DNA of 24,162 nucleotides from a virus. Taxonomy: Duplodnaviria; Heunggongvirae; Uroviricota; Caudoviricetes. Of this stretch, positions 4,365-24,162 are shown piece after piece. The position numbers were made by a program, and so were the translations under genes. Every line of letters begins with the position of its first letter. The first letter of the stretch is position 1. Under the pieces are notes generated by a model. That model made no database searches, was not told the origin of the DNA, and worked only from the letters and a program-made list of their open reading frames with translations. The DNA is taken from IMG/VR virus record IMGVR_UViG_2690316224_000007. One strand, 5' to 3'.

Positions 4365-4366
4365 TG

Positions 4367-5964: not shown

Positions 5965-6009
5965 TTTTTCTCTCCGTTACAGGCGGGCATGATGCCCGCT
6001 GTGAGTTGA

Positions 6010-7062: not shown

Positions 7063-7085
7063 AAAAAATTTGCTCCTTTGTCTTA

Positions 7086-7922
7086 TCAGAAGTCAGCCAG
7101 CTGGTCGGAGGCTGCGCCCGTTGCGGTGAACCGGTTCTGCGGATCGCCGTCCTGCGTGCGCAGTTTTTCCTTCAGTGCTGTCAGCTCTGTGGTCAGCGAA
7201 GTGATTTTCTGGCTGTCCTGCTGATGGCGGGTTTCCAGTGCATTAAAACGGTCGATAATATCGGCCTGTGACGTTGCGACACCTTCCACCGCTTCCTGAA
7301 TACGGGAGAAACTGGCGTCATCCGCTTTGCGGCCACGGCCAATAATCCCCATAACGCGGTTAAACCACTGGGTGCCTTCTTCCTGACGTTGTTCGGTGAG
7401 TTCGATAAGTTCTGACTCCATAGCGGCGGTGAACATCGCCACGTCTCCCTGCTGACAGTTGAATGTCATCAGTTGCATACGTTGTTGTGCCGCAAAGGCC
7501 AGACGTTCCGTGCCCAGGCTGGCGGGGGTGTCGGTCATTGCCAGCCCGCGCAGGTAAGGGCCTCCCGTGATGGTTGACTGTGGTTCCAGCTCAATACTGG
7601 AGTAAATTTTTTTACCATCGTTAAGCAGGGACATCATGCGAGCGGTCGGCTCAATTTCGGCATACAGTGCCGTGCGGCCTGCCAGCGGGCCATCGGTTAT
7701 GTCTTCGGTGCTCAACCCCACAACATCGCCCATAGCGGAAAACTCGCTACCGGGGAGTGGTGACAGGATGTGCTCAATATTCACACGTGCACCATAAACG
7801 GACGGGTTATAACTGGTGGCGGCAGCTTTCAGCATGTCGCCGTTGATTTCGCGCCCGTCTGCCGTCACACCGGAGACAGCCACGCGAAACTTTTTGCGGG
7901 ATGTCTTTTTTTCATTAGTCAT
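7086..7922 (-). CDS. O: Capsid scaffolding protein gpO
   Basis: Start chosen at ATG 7922 (MTNEKKTSRKKFRVAVSG), which has an AGAGGGG SD 8 nt upstream; the longer track start at 7955 has no SD. Product has the P2 O-like DPASLGTE block and a coiled-coil C-terminus. Confidence 0.82.
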   Translation of the reverse strand: MTNEKKTSRKKFRVAVSGVTADGREINGDMLKAAATSYNPSVYGARVNIEHILSPLPGSEFSAMGDVVGLSTEDITDGPLAGRTALYAEIEPTARMMSLLNDGKKIYSSIELEPQSTITGGPYLRGLAMTDTPASLGTERLAFAAQQRMQLMTFNCQQGDVAMFTAAMESELIELTEQRQEEGTQWFNRVMGIIGRGRKADDASFSRIQEAVEGVATSQADIIDRFNALETRHQQDSQKITSLTTELTALKEKLRTQDGDPQNRFTATGAASDQLADF

Positions 7923-7955
7923 AGTTTTTGCCCCTCTGACTGGTTCTTCAGTCAT

Positions 7956-8076
7956 GATGGCAAAGCGTAACAGGCTGATACAAAGGGCTTTTGTTGTAAG
8001 AAAACAGTCAGAACAGGGGGTTAAGGAGAACGGTTTCGCGCGCGGGTAATCTTCCTGTAATTACTCAGGGGGAGCA
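7956..8076. promoter_or_regulatory. Divergent late promoter region between O (minus) and P (plus)
   Basis: 121-bp intergenic between divergently transcribed O and P, as at the P2 late promoters; GGGGGAG SD before the P ATG. I could not find a clean TGT-N12-ACA activator dyad by eye. Confidence 0.35.
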
Positions 8077-9828: not shown

Positions 9829-10874
9829 TGAGCAGAAAAAATAAAAAAGTGCGCATGAGTTCACGCATTGATCTCGCTGATGCGCTCAGGAAAGAATCAT
9901 CGCTCAGTGCATTCACATTTGATGGTCCTTATCGCCTGACCGGGCATGACCTGCTGGACAATATGTACTGTGCTGATAACGGGCGGTGGTATGAAACCCC
10001 GGTGGACTGGTACAGTCTGGCAAGAGCCGCCCGGCAAACGTCCTGGCATCAGTCTGCGCTTTACTTTAAGCGTAATGTATTGCTCGGGTGCTACATCCCG
10101 CACCCGCTGCTTTCCCGGCAGGATTTCTCGGCGCTGGCGCTGGACTGGTTTGTGTTCGGTAACGCATTCCTTGAGCTTCGGAGCAATATGCTCGGCGAAC
10201 CGCTTAAATTACGGCACGCCCTGGCGAAATACATGCGACGCGGAAGCGATCTTGAATCATGGTGGTATGTGCAGGATGGCAAGGACGCGTTCCAGTTTCG
10301 CCCTGGCAAAGTGTGCCACCTGATGAATCCGGATATTAACCAGGAAATCTACGGCATGCCGGAATATCTTGGCGCATTACTCTCGGCCAGCCTTTCTCAT
10401 TCGGCGGACATGTTCAGAAAACTGTACTACGACAACGGATCCCACGCCGGGTGCATCATCTACATCGGTGCAGCGCAGGTAAACCGCGAAAGCATGGACT
10501 CCCTGAAAGAAACGTTACAGGGTGCGCGTGGTGGTGGTGCATTTAAAAACGTGCTCATTCATGCGCCCAACGGGGGCAAAGAAGGGGTGCAAATTTTGCC
10601 GTTCCAGCAGATCACCGCAAAGGATGAGTTCATGAATGTTAAGGCGGCATCCCGTGATGATGTGCTGGCTGCGCACCGCGTTCCGCCGCAACTGATGGGG
10701 GCGATGCCGGGCGAAAAAAGTGCGTTTGGTGATGTGGAGAAGGCCGCGCGGGTTTACGCAATTAACGAGCTGATGCCCGTCATGGAGGCCATGAAGCACA
10801 TCAATGACTGGCTTGGCGAAGAGGTGATCCGCTTTAACCCTTACGCACTGTTAGACACCCAGCCCACATCCTGA
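9828..10874 (+). CDS. Q: Portal protein gpQ
   Basis: 348-aa ORF translationally coupled to P; size and position as P2 Q; ends facing the expected cos region. Confidence 0.9.
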   Translation: MSRKNKKVRMSSRIDLADALRKESSLSAFTFDGPYRLTGHDLLDNMYCADNGRWYETPVDWYSLARAARQTSWHQSALYFKRNVLLGCYIPHPLLSRQDFSALALDWFVFGNAFLELRSNMLGEPLKLRHALAKYMRRGSDLESWWYVQDGKDAFQFRPGKVCHLMNPDINQEIYGMPEYLGALLSASLSHSADMFRKLYYDNGSHAGCIIYIGAAQVNRESMDSLKETLQGARGGGAFKNVLIHAPNGGKEGVQILPFQQITAKDEFMNVKAASRDDVLAAHRVPPQLMGAMPGEKSAFGDVEKAARVYAINELMPVMEAMKHINDWLGEEVIRFNPYALLDTQPTS

Positions 10875-10897
10875 CGCGCTTCGCTTGTCTGCTGCTT

Positions 10898-10920
10898 CGC
10901 CGGGGCATAAAAAATTTATG
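10898..10920 (+). other. Perfect 10-bp-stem hairpin (GGGGCATAAA-AAA-TTTATGCCCC), 24 bp after the Q stop
   Basis: Read directly from the sequence. No T-tract follows on either strand, so it is not a canonical intrinsic terminator; may be an RNA processing or protein-binding element. Confidence 0.4.
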
Positions 10921-11328
10921 CCCCGACTCTCCAGCTCCTGTATCAGTCAGATAATTTCACGACGCTTTCCTGCTGATTGCCATCATCGACAGTCAGACTC
11001 TTACGCAATCCCACCGCGTTGACTGCATGTTCTCGCCGTCTCAGTGCGATTTTGACGGCCTTACCTTTCACCCCATCAAATCAAAAGCCCTCACGTCTTT
11101 TTCACGCTCAGCGTGAGAAATACAGCCATTCTGTTCTATCTCTGCGACATCGTTCAGGGAATGCTATTTACCCCCTGAAACGCGGGCTGTTCCCCCGTCA
11201 CCTGCGCGCAGAAAAAACGCGTTTTTTTGTGCACGTACGGATCCTTGACGGATCCAGCCACCACGCGGGCCGGTAGTACAAAAAGTCGTTCAAAAAAATT
11301 GTGCAAACTTGTGCACTATCGTGCAAAC

Positions 11329-11351
11329 AAAAAAAGCGCCTTATCGGCGCT
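11329..11351 (-). terminator. Rho-independent terminator (minus strand)
   Basis: Minus-strand reading AGCGCC-GATAA-GGCGCT followed by TTTTTTT, a few nt after the stop of the 11361..11630 ORF. Confidence 0.55.
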
Positions 11352-11360
11352 TCAAAAGTA

Positions 11361-11630
11361 TCAATTGTTGCTGTGTATTAATCGCCAACCACGAACATAT
11401 GCTTCATAGGCATCTCTGTGCCTTACAGTTCCAGCCTGGCTAAACGGAATGTTAGCTAAAACTAAATCATTCTGAGCCATAGCGCGTCCTTCAAGCGCAT
11501 CTTTTATGCCTAGCTCAAAAGCACAGGCAGCGCATTTGTGCCGACCTTCTTGTCCTTGATATTCAGGGAGAGACAGAAATGTTGGATTATAACGATGAGG
11601 GTTCTTGCAAATACCTGTTTTAGCCCGCAC
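11361..11630 (-). CDS. Hypothetical protein (89 aa, GTG start; contains C-x-x-C)
   Basis: ORF in the AT-richer islet with a GAGG SD 8 nt before a GTG start and a terminator immediately downstream. No recognisable homology; could instead begin at an internal ATG (39 aa). Confidence 0.35.
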   Translation of the reverse strand: MRAKTGICKNPHRYNPTFLSLPEYQGQEGRHKCAACAFELGIKDALEGRAMAQNDLVLANIPFSQAGTVRHRDAYEAYVRGWRLIHSNN

Positions 11631-11765
11631 TTTATTTACCTCATAGGAAAAATATGCGTGCCTTTACAGAGGTGCGTGTAAGCAATAAAATATACGACGC
11701 ACATTTTGATTTACTTCGGAAGGCACGCATATCAGGTTAAGTGAGTCCGACCGAGTTTTACGCCC

Positions 11766-11799
11766 CAATAGTTGCTGCTATTGGGGCGTTTTGCATGGA
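11766..11799 (+). terminator. Intrinsic terminator-like hairpin (plus strand)
   Basis: 12-bp perfect stem ACGCCCCAATAG / CTATTGGGGCGT with a 6-nt loop, followed by TTTTG. No annotated plus-strand gene ends here, so it may end a small transcript (see findings). Confidence 0.45.
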
Positions 11800-11994
11800 C
11801 AATGCCGCGCAATTATCTTGTCGCTCACAATGCGAACGATCTTACAAAAAGGCACATTACTGTCAAGATAATTGATCGTTTTAATCGATAGATAATAGAC
11901 AATCTATTTGTTTAACAGATCGATTATTGAAGTAAGTGTGCCAGATGGAATGATACTGTCTCTATAAACGTGAGCATTTTTCGCGCAGATGCTT

Positions 11995-12306
11995 TTACTC
12001 AGGAAATAACGCCCGGATATTCCCAGCCATCTGGCTGGTTATCTTAGCCACTGGTGCAGACTGTGCTTCAAACTTTTTTGAGCTGATTTGTGTCACAGGT
12101 AATATCTCATCATCAGCCCATGCGGCCAGTCGGTAAGCCTCTGCCGGATTCGTCTTCAGAAGTGCCAGCCCGGCCAGAAAAGCCACGCGTTGGCCGCTTT
12201 TGCGGGCTTCTGGTGTAAGGCTGTCCAGCCAGGCGCATGCTTCTCCTTCGTTCTTGACGGCAGCTGGCTTCAGATAGAAACTTATTCTTCTGGTTGGTGT
12301 CGTCAT
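11995..12306 (-). CDS. parR: ParR/StbB-like centromere-binding protein (ribbon-helix-helix type)
   Basis: 103-aa ORF 4 nt downstream of parM, with an AAGGAG SD in the parM 3' end. Blocks RRISFYLKP, ACAWLDSL..E, RVAFLAGLAL and NIRALFPE align with plasmid R1 ParR as recalled. Confidence 0.65.
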   Translation of the reverse strand: MTTPTRRISFYLKPAAVKNEGEACAWLDSLTPEARKSGQRVAFLAGLALLKTNPAEAYRLAAWADDEILPVTQISSKKFEAQSAPVAKITSQMAGNIRALFPE

Positions 12307-12310
12307 TGGT

Positions 12311-13270
12311 TTACTCCTTGTTCATTGCGTACAGCCCATTAACCAGAGCAAATTGTGGCACCCCGTCCGCGATGAAAGTCGCATTAACTCCGCAGGCTTC
12401 GCGGATAGCGGGTGCCACAATCTCCGCCCCGCCACCGACAACCATCACCCGCCCGTAACCCGAAAAAACCGCCAGAGCGCGGATCACGCGTTGTTTCAGT
12501 GTTTCTTCCTTTTCACGAATAATCGCCATCAGGCTGGCGTAATGCGCGTCATTGTGGATGTGCTGGCGCAACCAGGCTTCATCATGGCGATGTTCGATAA
12601 TGGTATTGGCGATGTGGTGACTGGTGCGCATACCGTTAGTGGCCATCACCGACAGTACGGCATCGGCCATCAGAGAAACGCCTACGTGTGGATCGCAAAA
12701 CACCTGGCTGATACCTGCCAGTTGCCCCTGAACCTTTGCCACATCCAGCGTGGTTCCGCCCAAATCCACAATCAGCAGGGATTCAAACGGACTCATGTCA
12801 GCCAGTGCCTTAAAGCCAGCCGGAATGGATTCAGGCATAACCCGCACGTTACGGATAGTGAATGCTTCGCCGTTCTGGTACTCCACCGGGCGCATAACGT
12901 TCGCTTTTTTGCGGTTGATGTTGGCCATGTCCGGCTGTGCGTTTGTGTCGAAATACTCGCTCAGTGGCAGGGTGACAACCACATCCACCTCCCGTGGCGT
13001 GATGCCTGATTTGACCAGCGCGTGATGAATGGCAATGACATTCACATCGCTGTACTGGTATTGCGTGTCGGTCGTCTGGACAAAGCGATCGCTGACCGGA
13101 TCAAAACCATAGCGCACGCCATCAAGCATGTAGTTCGCGGGCTGCGTGCCACCGAACGGCGCAGACCATTCCGACTTGAAGCTGTTCGGGCTGATGGCGT
13201 TGCGGCGTTCGCCGTTCTCAGTCCATGCCAGCTTGATGTTGGTGGAGCCGTCGTCGATACAAATTCTCAT
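12311..13270 (-). CDS. parM: ParM/StbA actin-like segregation ATPase
   Basis: 319-aa ORF with a near-complete set of ParM blocks matching R1 ParM as recalled: IDDGSTNIKL, SPNSFK, YSDVNV, HHAL, TLPL, RKKAN, FTIRNVRVMPESIPAG, SLLIVDLGGTTLD, GVSL, LKQRV, FSGYGRVMVVGGGAE, LVNGLY. AGGAAAA SD before the ATG. Confidence 0.9.
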   Translation of the reverse strand: MRICIDDGSTNIKLAWTENGERRNAISPNSFKSEWSAPFGGTQPANYMLDGVRYGFDPVSDRFVQTTDTQYQYSDVNVIAIHHALVKSGITPREVDVVVTLPLSEYFDTNAQPDMANINRKKANVMRPVEYQNGEAFTIRNVRVMPESIPAGFKALADMSPFESLLIVDLGGTTLDVAKVQGQLAGISQVFCDPHVGVSLMADAVLSVMATNGMRTSHHIANTIIEHRHDEAWLRQHIHNDAHYASLMAIIREKEETLKQRVIRALAVFSGYGRVMVVGGGAEIVAPAIREACGVNATFIADGVPQFALVNGLYAMNKE

Positions 13271-13301
13271 CTCGATTTTCCTTATGTTGATTAATTAATC
13301 G

Positions 13302-13415
13302 TTTACGGGATTTTTAAATCCCGTTTTCGCCTGTTTTGTGCGCGCTTCATATATCGCGGCGCGTTTTTTGCTCATTTACGGGATTTGTGAATCCCGTTTC
13401 TGTCTGTTTTTTGTT
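13302..13415. repeat. Two ~39-bp direct repeats, each with a palindrome (ACGGGATTTTTAAATCCCGT / ACGGGATTTGTGAATCCCGT), spanning the A stop codon and the parM upstream region
   Basis: Repeat 1 at 13302..13340, repeat 2 at 13377..13415, 75 bp apart; each has CCCGTTTy and CTGTTTT sub-motifs. A TTAATTAAT -10-like element lies between repeat 1 and the parM SD. Confidence 0.5.
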
Positions 13416-16169
13416 TCCACTGGTCAGGCTACCCCGCAGCAGGTCTGCTTTGCGGCGGGCGCGTTCAGTGGTTTCACTGATTCTCTGTGCGTGCTCTGCG
13501 TCACGAATGGCGCGCAGCATGTCAGAAAGCACGGTAACGGGGGTTTTCATGGTGTTCTGGTCCTGCTGAAGTGTGGATGCCAGGCGTGCGGCGGCTTCGG
13601 GGTCTGATGTCCCCAGCTGTTCCAGATAGCTGGCGACCGGGTTATGGCGGATCTCCGTACTGCTTACGCCGTGGTTACGGCTCAGGCGCTGCCAGAGCTG
13701 CGTGATCCGGCTGTCCGGTCGGGTATCCGGTTTGCGTACAATTTCAAATCCCTGCGGTGCAATGTTGCTGCCGTCAACGTACAGACTGCCGCCCCGTAAC
13801 AGGTGCTGCATCTGCTGTTCACCGATATGCAGGCCGAGAGATTCAGCAGACTCCCGCCATTCTTTAGCGAGTAGTTCGTGGTTATCAGGCAAAGGCCGCT
13901 GCTGTTTGCGGCTCTGTGTCCAGCTCTGCATTTCATCACGGCTGTTTTTTGCCTGTTTGTCACGAAGCGAACGCATCAGCGCCCGGCGTTCGTGCCGTTT
14001 CAGTGAGCGCATCCATTCGTTCACTTCAACGCCGTCAGGGAGCTGCGGCCACGGTGCTGGCCGTTCTTCCGGCTGTTCTGTCCCGTTGTTGTCCGTTTCC
14101 TGTACACGGGGACAGTTATTGCCACGAGTCCAAGGGGCGGCAGGGCCGCCCTGAAGGTCAAAACCATTTTCGCGGGCGCTGTCTTCCGCTTCCGGTTTGC
14201 GTCTTACCAGCTTCCAGTTATCCGGATGCGTGCATACGCGGGAAGACTCCCCAATGAGCGGCGACCAGATCCCGTAAATCTGTACACTCTGCTCGCCGTA
14301 ATCGTTCAGCTCATCTGCGAGGTCGTAGGCTGTGCGAATCAGGTAGTCCTTGCGCGGAACAAGTACGCCCCCCTGTTTTTCAATGTAGGTGGCAAAACAT
14401 CCGGCATCAGCGGCAGCGAGTACCGCATCCATTGCGTCATCCTTCAGCCGTTGCGGGCCTTCCGGGTTGCGTGCCATCTGGCTGGCAAGGCGGCGGAGTT
14501 CACGCCACACCTGACGGGAGGGGATGCCAAAGAACTGGAACTGGCGGACCCGGTGAAGGCGCGCCCAGCCGATGGCACGCTCCACGCTCTCGGCCATTGA
14601 TTTACCTGTTTCGTGGTCAACGCGTGGCTTGCCCGTTTTCGGGTCGATGCCATCCACGGCACGGCTGTCCAGGTTTTTCCCGATGTAGGTGGCGATGTAG
14701 CTGGTCGGTGTGCCTTTTGAGCCGTCGACGTACTCCGCTTTAAAACGCGGAGTTATGTCATCGCCCAGCTCGTGACGATCTTCCTGAATGGCAATATCGC
14801 GGGTGTGGGACACAATGGTGTCGATTTCTTCCGGATGAGCAAAGACCATCATATGCCAGTGCACGGTGCCGTCATGGTGAGGCTCCACCGTGCGGATGCC
14901 ATACCAGCGCAGGCCGTCGCGGTTCAGTTTCTTGCGGACCGCCGCAAAAAACGAGTTAACCAGGTAATCGCTGGAGTCGCGCATAGTGGCCCCGTTCCAT
15001 TTGGGATTCGGATGACCGTTCTCCGTTGTTGCGTGGTATTTTGACGGGCAGGTGACAGTCAGAAACACCGCTCTGTCGCCACGGGCTTCGGCCAGAAGTT
15101 CCAGCCCCTTCATGGTGGCCATCATTTCTGCCTTACGGTGAACCGGGTTACTTACTCCCGCGTAATACACCGTCTCGAGATCAATCGTGAACCCGTCTTC
15201 ATTTTCCAGCATGAAACTTTTCAGGAAATCGCGTGTTTTCTCGCGCTGTGCGCGAAACTCGCTTAACGCATCCTGGCTCAGATAGGGCGATGTTTTTCTG
15301 GAAACCAGACAGGCGGCGCGGAGTTGTTCTTCTCTCCACTCGCAACGTAACAGCCACAGTTTGCGTTTCCACCATTCCGCACAGGTCAGGCGAAGGACTG
15401 CGCCCGGCAGCAGCTCCGTGTCCGGTTCGTTCCTCCGGTCTTTATCTGTTGTCAGTGCGTCATAATGTGGAGGCATGATGTGCAGGTGTAACGCCATGCG
15501 GGCCAGCATCTGATACGTCTTCAGCGTTACATCCATGGTCAGTTCGCCATCGGTCGCGCCAAAGCCATCGCAGAGTTTTTCGAAGGTGCTGCTGAACATC
15601 GCCGCCGTCATGGTGGCCAGCGTCTGTATCTGGTGTTTGTTGAGCTGCGGCAGGTAAAGCAAATCGTCCAGGCGTTCGCGTCCGGCAAGGGAGCGATAAC
15701 CCGGTGTCAGCCAGCGTCCGTCAGTGCGATCCAGACGTTCGAATATTTTGCGCAGGGTTCCGCGTGCATAGCGTTCCGCCTGCCAGCTCTTTTTGCCTTT
15801 CCGGCGATCGACTTCCTGTTTTTTGCGCAGGAAGGAGAGGTGGCGAATAAGCGGATCGCGCAGATAGGACGGCAGCAGGCGCAGCGAGGCCATGGCTTCA
15901 TCCACCGTGCCGCGTGCCTGTCTTCTGGCGTCTCCTGCCAGCGTGATGGTTTTGTCCTGTTTTTCCTGTGCGTCCAGGCTTTTATTAATCAGGTTGCCCA
16001 GTGGCGTGGCAGAGAACGCCGCATCAGCCTTTTCCTGTCGGTGCTCGTTCTCTGCCTGGTAGGCATCCAGCCAGGAGGAAAGCGCAGATTCAGGTGCGGG
16101 GATCCCCGTTCCTTCACGCCCCACTGCGTGGCGCGGTTGTTGCCAGTCCCTGATGTACTCTGTCGTCAT
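13347..16169 (-). CDS. A: Replication initiation endonuclease gpA (rolling-circle HUH initiator), 940 aa
   Basis: HUH motif seen as VEPHHDGTVHWHMMVF and the two-tyrosine catalytic motif as TSYIATYIGKN (Y-x3-Y). Position downstream of the small early genes matches P2 A; about 180 aa longer than P2 A at the C-terminus. Confidence 0.88.
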   Translation of the reverse strand: MTTEYIRDWQQPRHAVGREGTGIPAPESALSSWLDAYQAENEHRQEKADAAFSATPLGNLINKSLDAQEKQDKTITLAGDARRQARGTVDEAMASLRLLPSYLRDPLIRHLSFLRKKQEVDRRKGKKSWQAERYARGTLRKIFERLDRTDGRWLTPGYRSLAGRERLDDLLYLPQLNKHQIQTLATMTAAMFSSTFEKLCDGFGATDGELTMDVTLKTYQMLARMALHLHIMPPHYDALTTDKDRRNEPDTELLPGAVLRLTCAEWWKRKLWLLRCEWREEQLRAACLVSRKTSPYLSQDALSEFRAQREKTRDFLKSFMLENEDGFTIDLETVYYAGVSNPVHRKAEMMATMKGLELLAEARGDRAVFLTVTCPSKYHATTENGHPNPKWNGATMRDSSDYLVNSFFAAVRKKLNRDGLRWYGIRTVEPHHDGTVHWHMMVFAHPEEIDTIVSHTRDIAIQEDRHELGDDITPRFKAEYVDGSKGTPTSYIATYIGKNLDSRAVDGIDPKTGKPRVDHETGKSMAESVERAIGWARLHRVRQFQFFGIPSRQVWRELRRLASQMARNPEGPQRLKDDAMDAVLAAADAGCFATYIEKQGGVLVPRKDYLIRTAYDLADELNDYGEQSVQIYGIWSPLIGESSRVCTHPDNWKLVRRKPEAEDSARENGFDLQGGPAAPWTRGNNCPRVQETDNNGTEQPEERPAPWPQLPDGVEVNEWMRSLKRHERRALMRSLRDKQAKNSRDEMQSWTQSRKQQRPLPDNHELLAKEWRESAESLGLHIGEQQMQHLLRGGSLYVDGSNIAPQGFEIVRKPDTRPDSRITQLWQRLSRNHGVSSTEIRHNPVASYLEQLGTSDPEAAARLASTLQQDQNTMKTPVTVLSDMLRAIRDAEHAQRISETTERARRKADLLRGSLTSGNKKQTETGFTNPVNEQKTRRDI

Positions 16170-16175
16170 ACTGAT

Positions 16176-16541
16176 TTACTGCGTCATACCGTTCAGGGTG
16201 TCACGGCAAACGGCAGCCAGCCGCTGAATTTCCAGCACGGTGTCTTCTGTGTCGGCATAGCGATGTGTGATGCGGATGCTGTCGGCAATCACATCGACGA
16301 TTGCAGAGGATGGGCGCTGGTAAATGCCAATAACGGACGGAGTGCCACCTTCAATGCGGTAAAGCCTGTAATTTCCCTCGTGGCTGTCAATCATGTAGCG
16401 ACCATCAATAACAATCTTTCCGTCAGCGAGCTGCGGTACAGGCAGGGATTTCAGGTACATGTCATAACGTTCACGCACGCGAACGGCAAGATCACGCTCT
16501 GTGTTGAGCAGGTATTCAAGAAAGTCGTTGGCGAGAATCAT
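16176..16541 (-). CDS. Hypothetical early protein (121 aa) immediately upstream of A
   Basis: AAGAGGA SD 8 nt upstream of the ATG; stop lies 6 nt before the A start. Present in all three repeat copies with a few amino-acid differences. No recognisable family. Confidence 0.6.
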   Translation of the reverse strand: MILANDFLEYLLNTERDLAVRVRERYDMYLKSLPVPQLADGKIVIDGRYMIDSHEGNYRLYRIEGGTPSVIGIYQRPSSAIVDVIADSIRITHRYADTEDTVLEIQRLAAVCRDTLNGMTQ

Positions 16542-16613
16542 TGCGGCAATCCTCTTGTTACAGATGTGCGAAGGCCTCCCGCCGCAAGGTGCAGGAAAGG
16601 CCCGGAACAGGAA

Positions 16614-16844
16614 TTAATGGAGTTTGTTTTGCTGCTGGATGAGCTGCTGAAGCTCGCGCAGATCATCCGCCAGATAACTGAAAACAGCGGATGAGTAGAG
16701 GTTTGAAAGTTCGCAGCTACGCTCATGCAGCATATTGATGTGCATGATTTTAGCGACGCGGAATGCGCGGGAAAGTCTGCGGTTGATTTCAGTCTGGATG
16801 TGACGACGCTCCGCGATAGCGCGGTGCTGTTTGCGGTTTGCCAT
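16614..16844 (-). CDS. Hypothetical small basic protein (76 aa)
   Basis: AGAGG SD 7 nt upstream of the ATG; basic helical N-terminus (NRKQHRAIAERRHIQTEINRRL); identical in all three copies. Confidence 0.5.
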   Translation of the reverse strand: MANRKQHRAIAERRHIQTEINRRLSRAFRVAKIMHINMLHERSCELSNLYSSAVFSYLADDLRELQQLIQQQNKLH

Positions 16845-17211
16845 GGTGTGGCCTCTTTGGTTGTAAGTTTTGAAAACTCACCATCCAGAGCTGCGAAACT
16901 GTGGGTGGCGAGACGTACGGGGTTCGCAGTACCGGCAACCAAAGAACCCGGCCCGACCGAAGTCGGCCCCGTACGCCCCGCCATAATTCTGACGCGAAAA
17001 AAACGTGGCAATACAGTACGCACAAAAAAACCGCTGGCGCGGTTGTGCGCTTTGGTTGTCAGCAGGCTGCGAAACCCGGCACCCGTTTTATGAGGTGCAG
17101 CGAAAATGTAACCTGACTGATTGCGGCATGGCAAGCGGTTTTTTTGTGAGAACGGCATACTAAAAAATCCTGATACTGCTCCGGCCAGCGGTTTGCACTG
17201 GCCGGGTGTCA
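16845..17211 (-). ncRNA. Structured non-coding spacer between the SPFH gene and the 76-aa gene (candidate terminator cluster or small RNA)
   Basis: Minus-strand reading shows, in order, an 8-bp-stem hairpin CCGGCCAG..CTGGCCGG just after the SPFH stop, a hairpin AACCGC-GCCA-GCGGTT followed by TTTTTTT, a second T7 run, and a CCGAC-UUCG-GUCGG tetraloop hairpin. The only long ORF across it is low-complexity and out of frame with the 76-aa gene. Identical copies at 20135..20501 and 21523..21889. Confidence 0.4.
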
Positions 17212-17636
17212 TTACTTCACGGGAACGAACGGAACAGCGGTGTTACTGGTCATGTATTGCGGCAGCGTGCCGTTCCATTTGTTGATCGCTTCCAGCTCCA
17301 TAACGCCGGGATTCTGGCGCAGAGCTTCGCCGCGTAAACGAATGGCGTCGGCTTCAGCCTGGGCTTTTGTGCGAATGGCATCGGCCTGTCCGGCAGCTTC
17401 TGCGCGCAACATGTTGGCTTCTGCTTCGCGCTGCTTGACTTCCTGTTCGCGTTGCAGGGTTTTCTGGTTTGCCGTGACTTTGGCATTAATGCTGTCGATA
17501 ACGGTTGGCGGGTATTCCGGCTTACCCACATAAGAGAGGCTCATTACCTGAATGCCGATAGGTGTCGTTTCTGCCTGAATGTCTTTAAGTGCTGAATCCA
17601 GCAGTTCAGACTTGCCACCGTCGATAAATTTATCGN
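17212..17636 (-). pseudogene. 3' fragment of the SPFH lipoprotein gene (copy 1), truncated at an N
   Basis: Colinear with 21890..22314 of the full-length gene; coding continuity ends exactly at the ambiguous base at 17637. Confidence 0.65.
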
Positions 17637-17637
17637 G
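17637..17637. other. Single N: probable contig join
   Basis: SPFH-gene sequence lies directly before the N and mid-gene A sequence directly after it, which cannot be one contiguous locus. Confidence 0.8.
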
Positions 17638-19459
17638 TGCGAATCAGGTAGTCTTTGCGTGGAACAAGTACGCCGCCCTGTTTCTCTATGTAGGTGGCAA
17701 AACATCCGGCATCAGCGGCAGCGAGTACCGCATCCATTGCGTCATCCTTCAGCCGTTGCGGGCCTTCCGGGTTGCGTGCCATCTGGCTGGCAAGGCGGCG
17801 GAGTTCACGCCACACCTGACGGGAGGGGATACCAAAGAACTGGAACTGGCGGACACGGTGAAGGCGCGCCCAGCCGATGGCGCGTTCCACGCTCTCGGCC
17901 ATTGATTTTCCGGTTTCGTGGTCAACGCGTGGCTTGCCCGTTTTCGGGTCGATGCCATCTACGGCGCGGCTGTCCAGGTTCTTTCCGATGTAGGTGGCGA
18001 TGTAGCTGGTTGGCGTGCCTTTTGAGCCGTCGACGTACTCCGCCTTAAAGCGTGGGGTAATATCATCACCCAGCTCGTGACGATCTTCCTGAATGGCAAT
18101 ATCGCGGGTGTGGGACACAATGGTGTCGATTTCTTCCGGATGAGCAAAGACCATCATATGCCAGTGCACGGTGCCGTCATGGTGAGGCTCCACCGTGCGG
18201 ATGCCATACCAGCGCAGGCCGTCGCGGTTCAGTTTCTTGCGGACCGCCGCAAAAAACGTGTTAACCAGGTAATCGCTGGAGTCGCGCATGGTGGCCCCGT
18301 TCCATTTGGGATTCGGATGACCGTTCTCTGTTGTGGCGTGGTATTTTGACGGGCAGGTGATGGTCAGAAACACCGCTTTGTCGCCACGGGCTTCGGCCAG
18401 AAGTTCCAGCCCCTTCATGGTGGCCATCATTTCTGCCTTACGGTGAACCGGGTTACTTACTCCCGCGTAATACACTGTCTCGAGATCAATCGTGAACCCG
18501 TCTTCGTTTTCCAGAATGAAACTTTTCAGGAAATCGCGTGTTTTCTCGCGCTGTGCGCGAAACTCGCTTAACGCGTCCTGGCTCAGATAGGGCGATGTTT
18601 TTCTGGAAACCAGACAGGCGGCGCGGAGTTGTTCTTCCCGCCACTCGCAACGTAACAGCCACAGTTTGCGTTTCCACCATTCCGCACAGGTCAGGCGAAG
18701 GATTGCGCCCGGTAACAGTTCCGTATCCGGATCGCTCTTGTTCAGAGCTTCGTAATGTGGCGGCATGGCGTGCAGGTGTAACGCCATGCGGGCCAGCATC
18801 TGATACGCCTTCAGCGTTACATCCATGGTCAGTTCGCCATCGGTCGCGCCAAAGCCATCGCAGAGTTTTTCGAAGGTGCTGCTGAACATCGCCGCCGTCA
18901 TGGTGGCCAGCGTCTGTATCTGGTACTGGTTGAGCTGCGGCAGGTAAAGCAAATCATCCAGGCGTTCGCGTCCGGCAAGGGAGCGATAACCCGGTGTCAG
19001 CCAGCGGTGGTCGGTGCGGTCCAGACGTTCGAATATTTTGCGCAGTGTTCCGCGCGCGTAGCGTTCAGCCTGCCAGCTCTTTTTGCCTTTCCGGCGATCG
19101 GCTTCCTGTTTTTTGCGCAGGAAGGAGAGGTGGCGAATAAGCGGATCGCGCAGATAGGACGGCAGCAGGCGCAGCGAGGCCATGGCTTCATCCACCGCGC
19201 CGCGTGCCTGTTTTCTGGCGTCTCCTGCCAGTGTGATGGTTTTGTCCTGTTTTTCCTGTGCGTCCAGGCTTTTATTAATCAGGTTGCCCAGCGGCGTGGC
19301 GGAGAACGCCGCATCAGCCATTTCCTGGCGGCGCTCGTTCTCTGCCCGGTAGGCATCCAGCCAGGAGGAAAGCGCGGATTCAGGAACGGGGATCCCCGTT
19401 CCTTCACGCCCCACTGCGTGGCGCGGTTGTTGCCAGTCCCTGATGTACTCTGCCGTCAT
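17638..19459 (-). pseudogene. A: gpA copy 2: N-terminal ~607 codons, truncated at the N
   Basis: Colinear with 14340..16169 but with many substitutions and an indel (HYDALTTDKDRRNEPDTELL versus HYEALNKSDPDTELL), i.e. a divergent allele rather than an exact duplicate. Confidence 0.7.
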
Positions 19460-19465
19460 AGTGAT

Positions 19466-19831
19466 TTACTTCGTCATGCCATTCAGGGTGTCGCGGCAGA
19501 CGGCAGCCAGCCGCTGAATTTCCAGCACGGTGTCTTCTGTGTCGGCATGGCGATGTGTGATGCGGATGCTGTCGGCAATCACATCGACGATTGCAGAGGA
19601 TGGGCGCTGGTAAATGCCAATAACGGACGGGGTGCCATCTTCAATGCGGTAAAGCCTGTAATTTCCCTCGTGGCTGTCAATCATGTAGCGACCATCAATA
19701 ACAATCTTTCCGTCAGCGAGCTGCGGTACAGGCAGGGATTTCAGGTACATGTCATAACGTTCACGCACGCGAACGGCAAGATCACGCTCTGTGTTGAGCA
19801 GGTATTCAAGAAAGTCGTTGGCGAGAATCAT
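19466..19831 (-). CDS. 121-aa early protein, copy 2
   Basis: Differs from copy 1 at three residues (G to D, Y to H, terminal Q to K). Confidence 0.55.
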   Translation of the reverse strand: MILANDFLEYLLNTERDLAVRVRERYDMYLKSLPVPQLADGKIVIDGRYMIDSHEGNYRLYRIEDGTPSVIGIYQRPSSAIVDVIADSIRITHRHADTEDTVLEIQRLAAVCRDTLNGMTK

Positions 19832-19903
19832 TGCGGCAATCCTCTTGTTACAGATGTGCGAAGGCCTCCCGCCGCAAGGTGCAGGAAAGGCCCGGAACAG
19901 GAA

Positions 19904-20134
19904 TTAATGGAGTTTGTTTTGCTGCTGGATGAGCTGCTGAAGCTCGCGCAGATCATCCGCCAGATAACTGAAAACAGCGGATGAGTAGAGGTTTGAAAGT
20001 TCGCAGCTACGCTCATGCAGCATATTGATGTGCATGATTTTAGCGACGCGGAATGCGCGGGAAAGTCTGCGGTTGATTTCAGTCTGGATGTGACGACGCT
20101 CCGCGATAGCGCGGTGCTGTTTGCGGTTTGCCAT
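19904..20134 (-). CDS. 76-aa basic protein, copy 2
   Basis: Identical to copy 1. Confidence 0.45.
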   Translation of the reverse strand: MANRKQHRAIAERRHIQTEINRRLSRAFRVAKIMHINMLHERSCELSNLYSSAVFSYLADDLRELQQLIQQQNKLH

Positions 20135-20501
20135 GGTGTGGCCTCTTTGGTTGTAAGTTTTGAAAACTCACCATCCAGAGCTGCGAAACTGTGGGTGGCG
20201 AGACGTACGGGGTTCGCAGTACCGGCAACCAAAGAACCCGGCCCGACCGAAGTCGGCCCCGTACGCCCCGCCATAATTCTGACGCGAAAAAAACGTGGCA
20301 ATACAGTACGCACAAAAAAACCGCTGGCGCGGTTGTGCGCTTTGGTTGTCAGCAGGCTGCGAAACCCGGCACCCGTTTTATGAGGTGCAGCGAAAATGTA
20401 ACCTGACTGATTGCGGCATGGCAAGCGGTTTTTTTGTGAGAACGGCATACTAAAAAATCCTGATACTGCTCCGGCCAGCGGTTTGCACTGGCCGGGTGTC
20501 A

Positions 20502-20768
20502 TTACTTCACGGGAACGAACGGAACAGCGGTGTTACTGGTCATGTATTGCGGCAGCGTGCCGTTCCATTTGTTGATCGCTTCCAGCTCCATAACGCCGGG
20601 ATTCTGGCGCAGAGCTTCGCCGCGTAAACGAATGGCGTCGGCTTCAGCCTGGGCTTTTGTGCGAATGGCATCGGCCTGTCCGGCAGCTTCTGCGCGCAAC
20701 ATGTTGGCTTCTGCTTCGCGCTGCTTGACTTCCTGTTCGCGTTGCAGGGTTTTCTGGTTTGCCGTGAC
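20502..20768 (-). pseudogene. 3' fragment of the SPFH lipoprotein gene (copy 2), truncated at the N run
   Basis: Colinear with 21890..22156; ends at NNNNNN. Confidence 0.65.
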
Positions 20769-20774
20769 NNNNNN
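20769..20774. other. NNNNNN: probable scaffold gap or contig join
   Basis: Flanked by SPFH-internal sequence on the left and the A 5' end on the right. Confidence 0.8.
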
Positions 20775-20847
20775 CGGGGATCCCCGTTCCTTCACGCCCC
20801 ACTGCGTGGCGCGGTTGTTGCCAGTCCCTGATGTACTCTGCCGTCAT
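20775..20847 (-). pseudogene. A: gpA copy 3: first 24 codons only
   Basis: MTAEYIRDWQQPRHAVGREGTGIP then the N run. Confidence 0.65.
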
Positions 20848-20853
20848 AGTGAT

Positions 20854-21219
20854 TTACTTCGTCATGCCATTCAGGGTGTCGCGGCAGACGGCAGCCAGCC
20901 GCTGAATTTCCAGCACGGTGTCTTCTGTGTCGGCATGGCGATGTGTGATGCGGATGCTGTCGGCAATCACATCGACGATTGCAGAGGATGGGCGCTGGTA
21001 AATGCCAATAACGGACGGAGTGCCACCTTCAATGCGGTAAAGCCTGTAATTTCCCTCGTGGCTGTCAATCATGTAGCGACCATCAATAACAATCTTTCCG
21101 TCAGCGAGCTGCGGTACAGGCAGGGATTTCTGGTACATGTCATAACGATCACGCACGCGAGCGGCAAGATCACGTTCTGTGTTGAGCAGGTATTCAAGAA
21201 AGTCGTTGGCGAGAATCAT
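20854..21219 (-). CDS. 121-aa early protein, copy 3
   Basis: A third allele (substitutions in the RVRDRYDMYQKSL segment relative to copies 1 and 2). Confidence 0.55.
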   Translation of the reverse strand: MILANDFLEYLLNTERDLAARVRDRYDMYQKSLPVPQLADGKIVIDGRYMIDSHEGNYRLYRIEGGTPSVIGIYQRPSSAIVDVIADSIRITHRHADTEDTVLEIQRLAAVCRDTLNGMTK

Positions 21220-21291
21220 TGCGGCAATCCTCTTGTTACAGATGTGCGAAGGCCTCCCGCCGCAAGGTGCAGGAAAGGCCCGGAACAGGAA

Positions 21292-21522
21292 TTAATGGAG
21301 TTTGTTTTGCTGCTGGATGAGCTGCTGAAGCTCGCGCAGATCATCCGCCAGATAACTGAAAACAGCGGATGAGTAGAGGTTTGAAAGTTCGCAGCTACGC
21401 TCATGCAGCATATTGATGTGCATGATTTTAGCGACGCGGAATGCGCGGGAAAGTCTGCGGTTGATTTCAGTCTGGATGTGACGACGCTCCGCGATAGCGC
21501 GGTGCTGTTTGCGGTTTGCCAT
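21292..21522 (-). CDS. 76-aa basic protein, copy 3
   Basis: Identical to copies 1 and 2. Confidence 0.45.
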   Translation of the reverse strand: MANRKQHRAIAERRHIQTEINRRLSRAFRVAKIMHINMLHERSCELSNLYSSAVFSYLADDLRELQQLIQQQNKLH

Positions 21523-21889
21523 GGTGTGGCCTCTTTGGTTGTAAGTTTTGAAAACTCACCATCCAGAGCTGCGAAACTGTGGGTGGCGAGACGTACGGGG
21601 TTCGCAGTACCGGCAACCAAAGAACCCGGCCCGACCGAAGTCGGCCCCGTACGCCCCGCCATAATTCTGACGCGAAAAAAACGTGGCAATACAGTACGCA
21701 CAAAAAAACCGCTGGCGCGGTTGTGCGCTTTGGTTGTCAGCAGGCTGCGAAACCCGGCACCCGTTTTATGAGGTGCAGCGAAAATGTAACCTGACTGATT
21801 GCGGCATGGCAAGCGGTTTTTTTGTGAGAACGGCATACTAAAAAATCCTGATACTGCTCCGGCCAGCGGTTTGCACTGGCCGGGTGTCA

Positions 21890-22720
21890 TTACTTCACGG
21901 GAACGAACGGAACAGCGGTGTTACTGGTCATGTATTGCGGCAGCGTGCCGTTCCATTTGTTGATCGCTTCCAGCTCCATAACGCCGGGATTCTGGCGCAG
22001 AGCTTCGCCGCGTAAACGAATGGCGTCGGCTTCAGCCTGGGCTTTTGTGCGAATGGCATCGGCCTGTCCGGCAGCTTCTGCGCGCAACATGTTGGCTTCT
22101 GCTTCGCGCTGCTTGACTTCCTGTTCGCGTTGCAGGGTTTTCTGGTTTGCCGTGACTTTGGCATTAATGCTGTCGATAACGGTTGGCGGGTATTCCGGCT
22201 TACCCACATAAGAGAGGCTCATTACCTGAATGCCGATAGGTGTCGTTTCTGCCTGAATGTCTTTAAGTGCTGAATCCAGCAGTTCAGACTTGCCACCGTC
22301 GATAAATTTATCGGTGGTCATTTTGCTGGCCAGTCGGTTGAGTGCGTCGGCGATCTTCTGGCGCAGGTCAGTGTCGGTAATGTCATCCACGCCTTTGCGG
22401 TAGGTCTGAAACACTGTAGTAACTTTGGATGGATCAACCTTGTAGGCCACACCGATGTGATAGCCGATGGTTGTGCCGTCACTCATCTGAAAGCTGAACG
22501 GCTCATCGTAGGTCTTCATTTGTTTGAAGGTCGGGAAGATGTAAACCTCGGTATTCCAGCCAGTCCAGTAGCGACCAACGCCAACCACTTCGCCAACGCC
22601 TTTGTCGTCGCCCAGCTTGTTGACTTTGATGCCCACATTACCTGGCTCAACGCGATCGCAGCCAACCAGCAGGATGGCGGCAAAAAGCGGGAGAATCTGA
22701 AAGAGTCTGAATTTCTTCAT
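21890..22720 (-). CDS. SPFH/Band-7 (stomatin/prohibitin/HflK-C-like) lipoprotein, predicted periplasmic-face inner-membrane anchored
   Basis: 276-aa ORF with signal peptide and lipobox LLVGC followed by Asp at +2 (C-D-R-V). SPFH-like core and a C-terminal Ala/Glu/Gln/Arg-rich coiled-coil (REQEVKQREAEANMLRAEAAGQADAIRTKAQAEADAIRLRGEAL). ATGA overlap with the upstream membrane-protein gene. Confidence 0.8.
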   Translation of the reverse strand: MKKFRLFQILPLFAAILLVGCDRVEPGNVGIKVNKLGDDKGVGEVVGVGRYWTGWNTEVYIFPTFKQMKTYDEPFSFQMSDGTTIGYHIGVAYKVDPSKVTTVFQTYRKGVDDITDTDLRQKIADALNRLASKMTTDKFIDGGKSELLDSALKDIQAETTPIGIQVMSLSYVGKPEYPPTVIDSINAKVTANQKTLQREQEVKQREAEANMLRAEAAGQADAIRTKAQAEADAIRLRGEALRQNPGVMELEAINKWNGTLPQYMTSNTAVPFVPVK

Positions 22721-22920
22721 TGTTTAATTTCCTTGATGTACTTACTGAAAAGGCGAACAACGCCTGCCGGGTACAACATGGCAATGAAAATGCCCAGCAA
22801 TACCAGGAAGGAGCTGTCTGATGAAATCATTCGGGGGAGTACCCCTACATACAGAATGAGAGAGACGAGGACGCATACCAGCGCCCATGCATATGCACGA
22901 AACCATGTCTTGTTGTTCAT
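22717..22920 (-). CDS. Small two-helix membrane protein (67 aa), translationally coupled to the SPFH gene
   Basis: ATG at 22920 with an AAGGG SD; product MNNKTWFRAYAWALVCVLVSLILYVGVLPRMISSDSSFLVLLGIFIAMLYPAGVVRLFSKYIKEIKQ has two hydrophobic helices. The longer track ORF from 23052 overlaps the upstream gene out of frame. Confidence 0.5.
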   Translation of the reverse strand: MNNKTWFRAYAWALVCVLVSLILYVGVLPRMISSDSSFLVLLGIFIAMLYPAGVVRLFSKYIKEIKQ

Positions 22921-22930
22921 GTTGCGGCCC

Positions 22931-23230
22931 TTACTGGTTAAGGAAAAAATCGAAAACCTTGTCAATGCGTTGCAGCAGCTCTTGTTGTATTGCTTCCGGC
23001 GTTTCCGGTTCGCCTGGCGCCTCCAACGTCGCGCAGAAATCAGCGATTTCATGATGGAGCGTCAGGCGAATGGCAGGAGCCGTGGTTCTGGCGTGCTCCA
23101 GCTCATCCAGCAATGCCAGCGCAGCAGACGGCGAGAGCATTGCGCGAAATGCCAGTAATTTTTGAGGTGTTGCCATTCGTTGCAGGGCAAATGCCAGTTC
23201 GCGTAGCTTCTGGTGGTTGATGGTGCTCAT
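22931..23230 (-). CDS. Hypothetical early protein (99 aa, acidic, helical)
   Basis: ATGA overlap with the upstream gene stop; no family recognised. Confidence 0.5.
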   Translation of the reverse strand: MSTINHQKLRELAFALQRMATPQKLLAFRAMLSPSAALALLDELEHARTTAPAIRLTLHHEIADFCATLEAPGEPETPEAIQQELLQRIDKVFDFFLNQ

Positions 23231-23493
23231 GTTCTGGCTTCCTTCAGTAGCTGGTTAAACATGTGAGTAAGTGGATTGCTACACCCGAACGGCATCGGGT
23301 TTACGTGGTAAGAAGCCTGGCCTCCAGTTTTGCGAGCGCGACCACCTGTGCTGCGGTTTGTTCTGATGACTAAGCCGCCGCGCCAAAGTTGGCGTAACTC
23401 AGCATTAATGGCTGTGGTTGGAGTATTCAGTGCTGCGGCGATCTCTCCGCCGCTACACCCCGGATGAGTAGCGATGTAGTCCAGAATGGTCAT
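23227..23493 (-). CDS. Putative winged-helix DNA-binding protein (88 aa)
   Basis: N-terminal ILDYIATHPGCSGGEIAAALNTPTTAINAELRQLWRGGLV resembles an HTH followed by a wing; ATGA overlap with the upstream gene. Confidence 0.45.
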   Translation of the reverse strand: MTILDYIATHPGCSGGEIAAALNTPTTAINAELRQLWRGGLVIRTNRSTGGRARKTGGQASYHVNPMPFGCSNPLTHMFNQLLKEART

Positions 23494-23693
23494 CTGCGTG
23501 GCTCCTGTACCTGTCGGATAAGGTTTACCCGCGCCACATTAGTGGCGCAGAAGTAAGTGCCGTCAGTGAGGTAGATGTGATGTGCATCCTTTTCCGAACG
23601 ATGTTTGTCGATAGTGGTAATCAGTCGTTCGTCGACCTCGTATTCGCGGTCTCTGGAGGTGAGGCGAACGACAGGAAAATGCTTAATTGCCAT
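23490..23693 (-). CDS. Hypothetical early protein (67 aa)
   Basis: TAATG overlap with the upstream gene; no family recognised. Confidence 0.4.
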   Translation of the reverse strand: MAIKHFPVVRLTSRDREYEVDERLITTIDKHRSEKDAHHIYLTDGTYFCATNVARVNLIRQVQEPRR

Positions 23694-23956
23694 TACACCC
23701 TCTTGGCTTTATGTCTGTATTTGAGCTTTTCTATTTCTTCTTTTTGTTCTTTTAATGTTCTTATGGCTGTGAAAACATTAAAGCCCATAAAATGTGCTCT
23801 GTTCGCTAATGTAATACTGGCACCTTTGTTAGCTATATCATCTTCAATATCAGTGAAATACTGACTGATTTCTTTTAGTGCGGCGCAAAGCTTTGCGAGA
23901 TCTCGCCCCCTGTCAAAATATGCATCCTTCAGTATTTTTTGATTTGTCCTGAGCAT
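23693..23956 (-). CDS. Hypothetical first gene of the early operon (87 aa from ATG 23956; track ORF extends to 24010)
   Basis: GAGG SD 5 nt upstream of ATG 23956, and a TATATATA -10-like element just upstream; AT-rich codon usage unlike the structural genes. Identity (Cox/Apl/CII-like) unknown. Confidence 0.4.
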   Translation of the reverse strand: MLRTNQKILKDAYFDRGRDLAKLCAALKEISQYFTDIEDDIANKGASITLANRAHFMGFNVFTAIRTLKEQKEEIEKLKYRHKAKRV

Positions 23957-24048
23957 GCTAACCTCGTGTTTATATATATGGATACCTCCGCGAGTGCGGA
24001 TTGTTTTCATGTTTTCTTATTTAATCGTGTGTTTTATTTGTGCTGTTA

Positions 24049-24159
24049 TTCTTCAGTGAAAAAACGCTCAATCTTTTTTACTGAATGAATAATTCGCATA
24101 ATCCCAATAGCGCAGGCCACCGAAATAATCAGAACAAGCCATGAGATAAATATACTCAT
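24049..24159 (-). CDS. Possible small hydrophobic peptide (36 aa) at the window edge
   Basis: MSIFISWLVLIISVACAIGIMRIIHSVKKIERFFTEE, one predicted transmembrane helix. The ATG is 3 nt from the window end, so no upstream signal is visible and the ORF may extend further. Confidence 0.2.
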
Positions 24160-24162
24160 GCG

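Follow-up and report, generated by a model that had tools for sequence, protein, structure and literature searches.

The 1382-bp block that occurs three times in the window analysed here, a 24,162-nt stretch constituting the entire contig CYDA01000046.1 of draft Escherichia coli assembly GCA_001285085.1, is almost certainly a false duplication flanked by gaps, generated during draft assembly or scaffolding, rather than the structure of a DNA molecule. The contig presents one locus as three overlapping segments with N characters between them, and two parent prophages, hereafter X and Z', account exactly for the mosaic make-up of the middle and right segments. We infer that in the true structure window positions 1-17635 are joined directly to 22314-24162; removal of the redundant region between them (17636-22313; 4,678 positions) restores a single-copy prophage.

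The window carries a P88-like (P2-type) prophage, which from gpA to the SPFH gene shares 95.7% nucleotide identity with Escherichia phage P88 (KP063541/NC_026014). Pfam identified a Phage_GPA domain in its replication protein (PF05840; E = 1e-130) and Phage_cap_P2, Phage_GPO_N, Phage_portal, Terminase and Phage_term_smal on the source contig; P2-type capsid, GPO scaffold, terminase and portal genes are also annotated on L001. Together with gpA, the conserved arrangement of these head, terminase and portal genes assigns it to the P88-like, P2-type (Xuanwuvirus) prophages. This family occupies 2,073 places in 1,684 of 5,426 complete E. coli genomes, with a maximum of four per genome, and the window prophage is an ordinary member of it with ordinary biology. 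PADLOC, run on the SPFH protein together with its neighbours, returned no credible defence-system match, and no mention of the assembly accessions, including GCA_001285085.1, was found in the literature.

Self-BLAST and a repeat search both recovered the three block copies noticed in a previous, sequence-only reading of the window, at 16097-17478, 19387-20768 and 20775-22156, with self-BLAST identities of 99.57% between copies 2 and 3 (6 mismatches) and 99.16% between copies 1 and 3. The constant offsets described in that reading do not hold, the start-to-start distances of 3290 and 1388 being incompatible with a regular array. Homology extends beyond the block, with 14332-17478 matching 17637-20768 (3147 nt, 96.8%) and 16097-17635 matching 20775-22313, and the 76-aa gene, the spacer and the SPFH 3' end show no difference among the three copies. 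Apart from an N at 17636 and NNNNNN at 20769-20774, every one of the 24,162 characters is A, C, G or T, and both exceptions coincide exactly with collinearity breaks, so that N characters separate the duplicated segments at both junctions. The junctions had been placed at ambiguous bases in the sequence-only reading, rightly for NNNNNN and for the existence of a single N, which lies at 17636 and not at 17637; the abrupt switch from SPFH-internal to gpA sequence noted there falls precisely on these breaks. Junction 1 leads from 17635 to the equivalent of 14332, joining SPFH-internal to gpA-internal sequence, with the N itself equivalent to 14331 (T in X, G in Z), and junction 2 leads from the equivalent of 17478 to that of 16097, joining SPFH-internal sequence to the gpA 5' end. 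The two junctions involve two different pairs of points, and each of them truncates both SPFH and gpA. In both continuations at junction 1, ATCG is followed by GTG, a 3-nt microhomology at chance level (1 in 64).

Piece 1 (1-17635) represents prophage X faithfully: it is collinear with the locus of ETEC1749, has the X state at all informative sites and is identical to sister contig L035 over 11164-17635. It encompasses the late genes, ParM/StbB, gpA (13347-16169, minus strand), the 121-aa gene (16176-16541, minus), a 76-aa derepression gene (16614-16844, minus), C4 and isrK, and the 3' part of SPFH (17212-17635). The structured spacer is a predicted C4 antisense RNA (16901-16988, minus) and isrK sRNA (17024-17098, minus), putatively regulatory, with Rfam covariance-model scores of 87.1 bits for C4 (RF01695; gathering threshold 45; model positions 1-87 of 87) and 65.9 bits for isrK (RF01394; gathering threshold 50; 1-77 of 77); both occur three times in the window. 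The additional C4/isrK pairs at 20191-20388 and 21579-21776 (minus) are artefactual repeats of the locus at 16901-17098.

The left part of piece 2 (17637-19638, minus) is Z'-derived, 95% identical to X, and contains the 5' 1823 nt (607 codons) of a second gpA allele (17637-19459, minus) and the 3' part of a 121-aa gene. The crossover from Z' to X falls within 104 nt common to both (19639-19742), and the right part (19743-20768, minus) is X-derived. The 121-aa gene of this piece (19466-19831, minus) takes its 5' part from the X-derived side and encodes chimeric allele 2; the other features are a 76-aa gene (19904-20134), C4 (20191-20278), isrK (20314-20388) and an SPFH 3' fragment (20502-20768), all on the minus strand. 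Piece 3 begins with a mosaic (20775-21324, minus), of which 20775-21230 is 99.8% identical to Z-type loci, holding the first 73 nt of gpA (20775-20847, minus) and allele 3 of the 121-aa gene (20854-21219, minus). The rest of the piece is X-derived (21325-24162, minus), with 21231-24162 100% identical to L032 and L035. It comprises a redundant repeat of 16647-17635 (21325-22313, minus) and, according to the collapse test described below, the true continuation of piece 1 (22314-24162, minus), and includes the complete SPFH gene (21890-22720, minus) followed by upstream early genes.

Two templates are enough to explain all three pieces. X is the backbone prophage of the window and carries SPFH as a cargo gene; Z' is the P88-like prophage type adjoining pdxB in strain 14EC047, and lacks the SPFH gene. 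Identity between them is ~95-96% across gpA, and stretches of the 121-aa gene are nearly identical. Positions 17637-19640 match E. coli 14EC047 and 14EC017 at 100.0% over 2004 nt, and 19841-20768 (928 nt) shows 100% identity with X (L035, L032) but only 94% with Z; over the full length of piece 2, the best complete-genome match is 97.7%. A two-parent test resolved piece 2 into 90 consecutive Z' sites followed by 90 consecutive X sites, and piece 3 into 8 Z' (20841-20937), 2 X (21019 and 21026), 4 Z' (21131-21175) and 86 X sites (from 21325), leaving zero unexplained sites in the two pieces, which contradict each other in their overlap and have different switch points.

That gpA copy 2 departs from copy 1, as previously noticed, was substantiated by 81 substitutions, 57 of them at third codon positions, and one in-frame 15-nt indel. 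The third-position bias and in-frame indel rule out sequencing error as the source of the differences and identify them as real alleles; the copies carry template-specific variants, not random errors. The 121-aa protein likewise has the three alleles claimed for it, varying at six residues (20, 24, 30, 65, 95 and 121). Allele 3 is a protein variant common in nature, with 830 blocks listing it; allele 2 has no record outside this contig, and is an artefactual chimera. These three haplotypes, with an apparent private variant at 19638, first suggested three templates, a model rejected on the 100% match of 14EC047 to the left part of piece 2, base 19638 included, and on the completeness of the two-parent test. 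The proposal that the scaffold combines contigs of two or three prophages therefore stands for two related templates; a third is needless, and pieces 2 and 3 are themselves X/Z' chimeras, not faithful contigs of other prophages. Both left piece boundaries abut X/Z variant sites (14331 and 16095-16096; joint chance ~0.0014), the equivalent of the second of these, a variant pair, directly preceding the start of piece 3. Greedy edge extension that halts at ambiguous bases would be expected to leave such boundaries, which indicate an algorithmic rather than a biological cause. The right end of the contig (24162) was also checked for the start of an X/Z-identical repeat; X and Z are ~96% identical there.

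Comparison with other genomes and assemblies supports a single-copy locus. Complete genomes carry one copy, and on the complete ETEC1749 genome the three pieces map to overlapping intervals (6703-24339, 21033-24179 and 22798-25727) of a single-copy locus. With at least 80% query coverage required, junction 1 and junction 2 were each found in 0 of 5,426 complete E. coli genomes, each junction half by itself occurring in more than 1,100 of them. Scans of viral contigs returned no match to the junction pattern, relatives there reaching at most ~98% identity; exact DNA patterns of the window had no match in GTDB representative genomes and one in JGI/ENA metagenomes, at only 96% identity, and it was an exact protein lookup that led to the source contig. 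Excision of 17636-22313 leaves 19,484 nt (1-17635 plus 22314-24162), and this collapsed sequence contains all of sister contig CYEK01000062.1 (8,312 nt) as an exact substring, a match absent from the raw window. The sister assembly holds the same prophage at 100% identity, in one copy and with neither junction, and Logan assembly SRR9615973 likewise shows this gpA in a single-copy arrangement, independent assemblies thus confirming the structure obtained after duplicate removal. The suspicion of mis-stitching in place of true tandem amplification is hence upheld by the N characters at the junctions, the single-copy genomes, the junction counts and the single-copy sister, and the region marked as possibly chimeric (17212-21889) is indeed suspect, its extent being slightly wider, at 17636-22313.

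False duplications are characteristically marked by gaps lying between the two members of a pair, and published criteria for them also include reduced or anomalous read depth and discordant read pairs (PMC9516828). GapFiller extends contig edges one base at a time using 30-mer overlaps, lets the majority decide where alleles differ, and closes a gap only if its two extensions overlap and agree with the gap size (PMC3446322); the paper describing a high-throughput Velvet, SSPACE and GapFiller pipeline states that greedy tools can make false joins (PMC5320598). A mechanism of the SSPACE/GapFiller type would account for the window. The sequenced sample would have contained two related P88-like prophage templates, X and Z', and a paired-read scaffolder may have strung together three contigs (one of X, a short one of Z' gpA and the right-hand one of X), as read pairs of either prophage would lead into the region that both share. 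The contig edges would then have been lengthened by a greedy gap filler into the gaps base by base, hopping between paralogs where identity is longer than the k-mer and halting where the templates disagree without a majority. The extensions presumably did not merge at the expected size, so that the gaps would have stayed open, leaving one N and six N between sequences that overlap. On the right, pieces 1 and 2 end within SPFH (at 17635 and 20768), where Z' has no homologue, so these two ends are not accounted for by a stop at an ambiguous base; exhausted gap N characters or a lack of reads may be assumed instead.

Alternatively, recombination or gene conversion between two co-resident P88-like prophages could have produced a genuine tandem partial duplication, with nested partial copies of the stretch from gpA to SPFH and the N characters as chance low-quality calls. 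The natural alleles in the copies, which are not errors, agree with this, as do the two viral contigs obtained from one isolate and the frequency of several P88-like prophages per genome (2,073 places in 1,684 genomes), which supplies partners for recombination. It would nevertheless require the sole N characters in 24 kb to fall on both junctions, two junctions unlike each other, and double truncation of both SPFH and gpA, and it conflicts with the absence of the junctions from all 5,426 complete genomes, with the single copy in the 100%-identical sister prophage and with piece boundaries adjoining X/Z variant sites; we consider it highly improbable. This view, with its slim chance, would make the nested partial copies real X/Z' mosaic duplications of the replication/derepression region, endowing the prophage with three C4/isrK immunity-type RNA loci, and the N characters poor base calls at junctions that are difficult to sequence.

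Somewhat less remote, yet still improbable, is a wrong scaffold of faithful contigs, in which pieces 2 and 3 would derive from two further natural recombinant prophages, making three in total. Genomes with 3-5 matching places do exist, the 121-aa haplotypes are three, and that of piece 3 encodes the common natural allele listed in 830 blocks. Against this, each piece is composed exactly of segments from one and the same pair of parents and has no private site, piece 3 switches parent three times within ~500 nt, and the recombinant of piece 2 is in no complete genome (best 97.7%), its 121-aa protein being unique on record. Moreover, SPFH is missing from natural Z-type prophages, whose identity to X across the 76-aa/spacer region is only 94%, and the acquisition of X's exact right-hand sequence by two extra prophages is unparsimonious. 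The same artefact could also have arisen from a mixed or contaminated culture of two E. coli strains with one prophage each, a possibility raised in the sequence-only reading, which sequence alone does not tell from the one-genome case; it is unlikely, though the least so of these alternatives. Attachment sites in finished genomes differ, X-type prophages lying by pheA (ETEC1749) and Z-type by pdxB, and multiple copies per genome are common, which makes co-residence the simpler assumption.

Recognizing this false duplication is of value for data hygiene. Through the artefact, a public contig has acquired 4,678 spurious positions and, with them, false gene gains: two extra copies each of the 121-aa gene, the 76-aa derepression gene and the C4/isrK RNA pair, a 609-aa gpA fragment and two SPFH fragments. 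The chimeric 121-aa "allele" is now in public protein collections, with no other source on record, and prophage gene copy number, sRNA loci and allele diversity counted from such drafts will be misleading. The same error can be flagged elsewhere without reads by N characters exactly at collinearity breaks, by pieces that are exact two-parent mosaics and by piece boundaries adjoining paralogue-variant sites.

Once the artefact is removed, the window prophage is unremarkable beside phage P88 and the Xuanwuvirus, P2-type temperate phages, whose gene order it shares. What the window shares with a genuine tandem amplification or segmental duplication of prophage DNA is a same-strand, head-to-tail repetition of several genes. 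In contrast to such arrays, its units are unequal (3,305 and 1,388 nt between equivalent points), its copies are 3% diverged with reading frames intact, and its two different junctions are each replaced by N, so that there is neither uninterrupted sequence over the unit junctions nor an identical junction recurring between successive units; the structure is also missing from every finished genome examined, and independent genomes (0 of 5,426) and the sister assembly lack both junctions. The closest likeness is to the "heterotype" false duplications (Ko et al. 2022, Genome Biol, PMC9516828), in which two diverged versions of a single locus are likewise placed in one scaffold, separated by gaps, with version-specific variants in the copies and false gene gains. 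The window differs from these in that paralogous prophages, of a haploid bacterium or a mixed culture, take the place of diploid haplotypes, and in that the inserted pieces are additionally mosaics of both versions.

The window is a P88-like prophage (Xuanwuvirus, P2-type) of E. coli, 95.7% identical to phage P88 from gpA to the SPFH gene. Of 5,426 complete E. coli genomes, 1,684 carry P88-like matches; these fall at 2,073 places in all and at no more than 4 in any one genome. Read on the minus strand, which carries all of these features, the block region encodes a 276-aa SPFH/Band_7 protein (intact copy at 21890-22720), the isrK sRNA (17024-17098) and the C4 antisense RNA (16901-16988), both Rfam gathering-level matches, followed by a Derepression-family protein of 76 aa (PF25738), a 121-aa protein with no function assigned (phrog_3237) and the 940-aa replication endonuclease gpA (PF05840).

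Self-BLAST and a repeat search of the window recovered the threefold 1,382-bp block described in the sequence-only reading, with homology running past the block at either side. Positions 14332-17478 align with 17637-20768 (3,147 nt, 96.8%, 6 gap openings), 16097-17639 with 20775-22316 (99.16%), and 19387-20768 with 20775-22156 (1,382 nt, 99.57%). The window contains exactly two non-ACGT stretches, a single N at 17636, initially placed at 17637, and NNNNNN at 20769-20774. Collinearity is broken twice, each time precisely on these characters, as had been proposed, delimiting three pieces: P1 (1-17635), P2 (17637-20768) and P3 (20775-24162). The copies had been described as lying at constant offsets, but their spacing (3,290 vs 1,388) makes the array irregular.

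Comparison with other genomes and assemblies reveals that the three pieces are overlapping views of one single-copy locus. On the complete chromosome of strain ETEC1749, P1 maps to 6703-24339, P2 returns to 21033-24179 and P3 returns again to 22798-25727. When 300-nt queries, each centered on one junction, were searched against the complete E. coli genomes, none of the 5,426 covered at least 80% of either query, while either half alone was matched in more than 1,100 of them. An exact match to the 940-aa gpA identifies the window as the complete 24,162-bp contig CYDA01000046.1, part of NCBI draft assembly GCA_001285085.1. The identical gpA is found in single-copy layout on two Logan assemblies and on CYEK01000062.1 (8,312 bp, no N), a sister contig from assembly GCA_001286265.2, whose accession number neighbors that of GCA_001285085.1. 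This 8,312-nt contig is absent as an exact substring from the uncollapsed window, but removal of 17636-22313 leaves 19,484 nt that contain it whole and exactly, and the true structure is therefore 1-17635 joined to 22314-24162, with 4,678 spurious positions.

The extra sequence derives from more than one parent. The gpA copies differ by 81 substitutions, 57 of them at third codon positions, and by a sole, in-frame indel of 15 nt; this third-position excess and the preserved frame indicate that the differences are not read errors. The gpA part of P2 is only ~95% identical to three loci of the window's own prophage type (X), the sister contig included, but 99.6-99.8% identical to another P88-like type (Z), whose prophages adjoin pdxB and lack the SPFH gene. 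The first 2,004 nt of P2 are 100.0% identical to the finished genomes 14EC047 and 14EC017, which carry the Z-type prophage hereafter termed Z', whereas from 19841 on P2 is 100% identical to the X-type sister contig and 94% to Z. The first 456 nt of P3 are 99.8% Z-type, and the sequence from 21231 on is 100% X. Scoring all sites at which X (sister contig) and Z' (14EC047) differ resolves P2 into 90 consecutive Z' sites followed by 90 consecutive X sites, with the parent switch inside a 104-nt X/Z'-identical interval (19639-19742), and P3 into 8 Z', 2 X, 4 Z' and 86 X sites. At none of these sites does P2 or P3 match neither parent. The two pieces disagree at six sites within their overlap and hence cannot both be faithful to one locus, and no complete genome matches P2 over its entire length at more than 97.7%. 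Two templates, X and Z', explain everything.

The 121-aa protein encoded at 19466-19831 (minus) combines V20, E24 and L30 from X with D65, H95 and K121 from Z'. This allele was not found in any other contig of the protein collection; it is an artefactual chimera, yet is stored in a public protein collection. The allele encoded by P3 is widespread, with 830 blocks listed.

The left-hand piece boundaries abut X/Z variants. P2 starts one base past the equivalent of position 14331 (T in X, G in Z), the lone N filling that exact position, and P3 starts directly behind the X/Z variant pair 16095-16096. The chance of a boundary falling right after a variant column is 0.038, and ~0.0014 for both boundaries. 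This fits a greedy edge extender such as GapFiller, which grows scaffold edges one nucleotide per step with a 30-mer overlap and a majority-vote ratio at "allelic differences", and which closes a gap only with overlapping extensions and an insert of the estimated size (PMC3446322). Working over two paralogous templates, greedy extension would switch parent where these are identical for more than k, would halt where neither base wins, and would leave some N characters standing between extensions that overlap. A bacterial high-throughput pipeline in wide use runs Velvet, SSPACE and then 120 GapFiller iterations and is described as greedy and liable to false joins (PMC5320598); a pipeline of this type is a candidate maker of GCA_001285085.1. 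On the right, P1 ends at 17635 and P2 at 20768, both within SPFH, where Z' has no homologous sequence, and a stop at an ambiguity does not account for these two ends.

The two templates may have come from a mixed culture instead of two prophages in one genome. Co-residence of X and Z' is plausible, since X and Z types occupy different attachment sites in finished genomes and several copies per genome are common. Isolate genome 2563366899 is represented in IMG/VR by two separate P88-like contigs, each with the X-type gpA pattern, and exemplifies more than one P88-like prophage per isolate, the setting for such misassembly. The mis-stitching of related prophages suggested by the sequence-only reading is supported, with two templates sufficing and a third unneeded. 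The inserted pieces are themselves chimeric, and the spurious span is 17636-22313, slightly wider than the 17212-21889 for which possibly chimeric annotations had been suspected. Duplicated pairs separated by gaps are a hallmark of false duplications and result in false gene gains (PMC9516828). The repeated block is no biological feature, and gene calls in 17636-22313 should be ignored: a 609-aa gpA fragment, two SPFH fragments, and two surplus copies each of the 121-aa gene, the 76-aa gene and the C4/isrK pair.

Directly downstream of gpA lies a plasmid-type partition module (11995-13413), kept in relatives. It encodes ParM at 12311-13270 (minus) and, at 11995-12306 (minus), an StbB-like Plasmid_stab_B protein. 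A possible parC-like centromere is a pair of 42-nt direct repeats that lie immediately upstream of parM and overlap the gpA 3' end; the repeats, at 13299-13340 and 13372-13413, share 83% identity and lie 73 nt apart. The interval from the portal gene to the StbB-like gene (10867-11995) is a variable spot relative to two X-type loci and ETEC1749, filled by different small genes in different prophages, and identity to close relatives falls or breaks at about 10850-10867. Within 21890-22920, the SPFH/Band_7 gene (phrog_200 "lipoprotein", minus) is overlapped from upstream by a 67-aa membrane-protein gene (22717-22920, minus; phrog_1130 "moron"). Both genes behave as an optional cargo cassette: one X-type locus with identical gpA has neither called between its 99-aa and 76-aa genes, and Z-type prophages lack SPFH. 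PADLOC returned no credible defence-system match for the SPFH protein and its neighbors.

The "structured spacer" at 16835-17110 (minus), artefactually repeated at 20125-20400 and 21513-21788, holds isrK and then C4 on the strand of the early operon, immediately upstream of the 76-aa Derepression-family gene. A 224-aa ORF (16538-17212) overlaps both RNAs and scores above the Pfam threshold for Phage_ASH at residues 35-126, so that one protein-family and two RNA-family matches share identical DNA; RefSeq annotates the equivalent ETEC1749 region as an "ash family protein" pseudogene. At the published Gifsy-1 IsrK locus, the RNA is reported to function as an sRNA and also to form part of an mRNA (PMC4825925). 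The layout of the spacer resembles that locus and suggests that the derepression gene of P88-like phages may be under RNA control.
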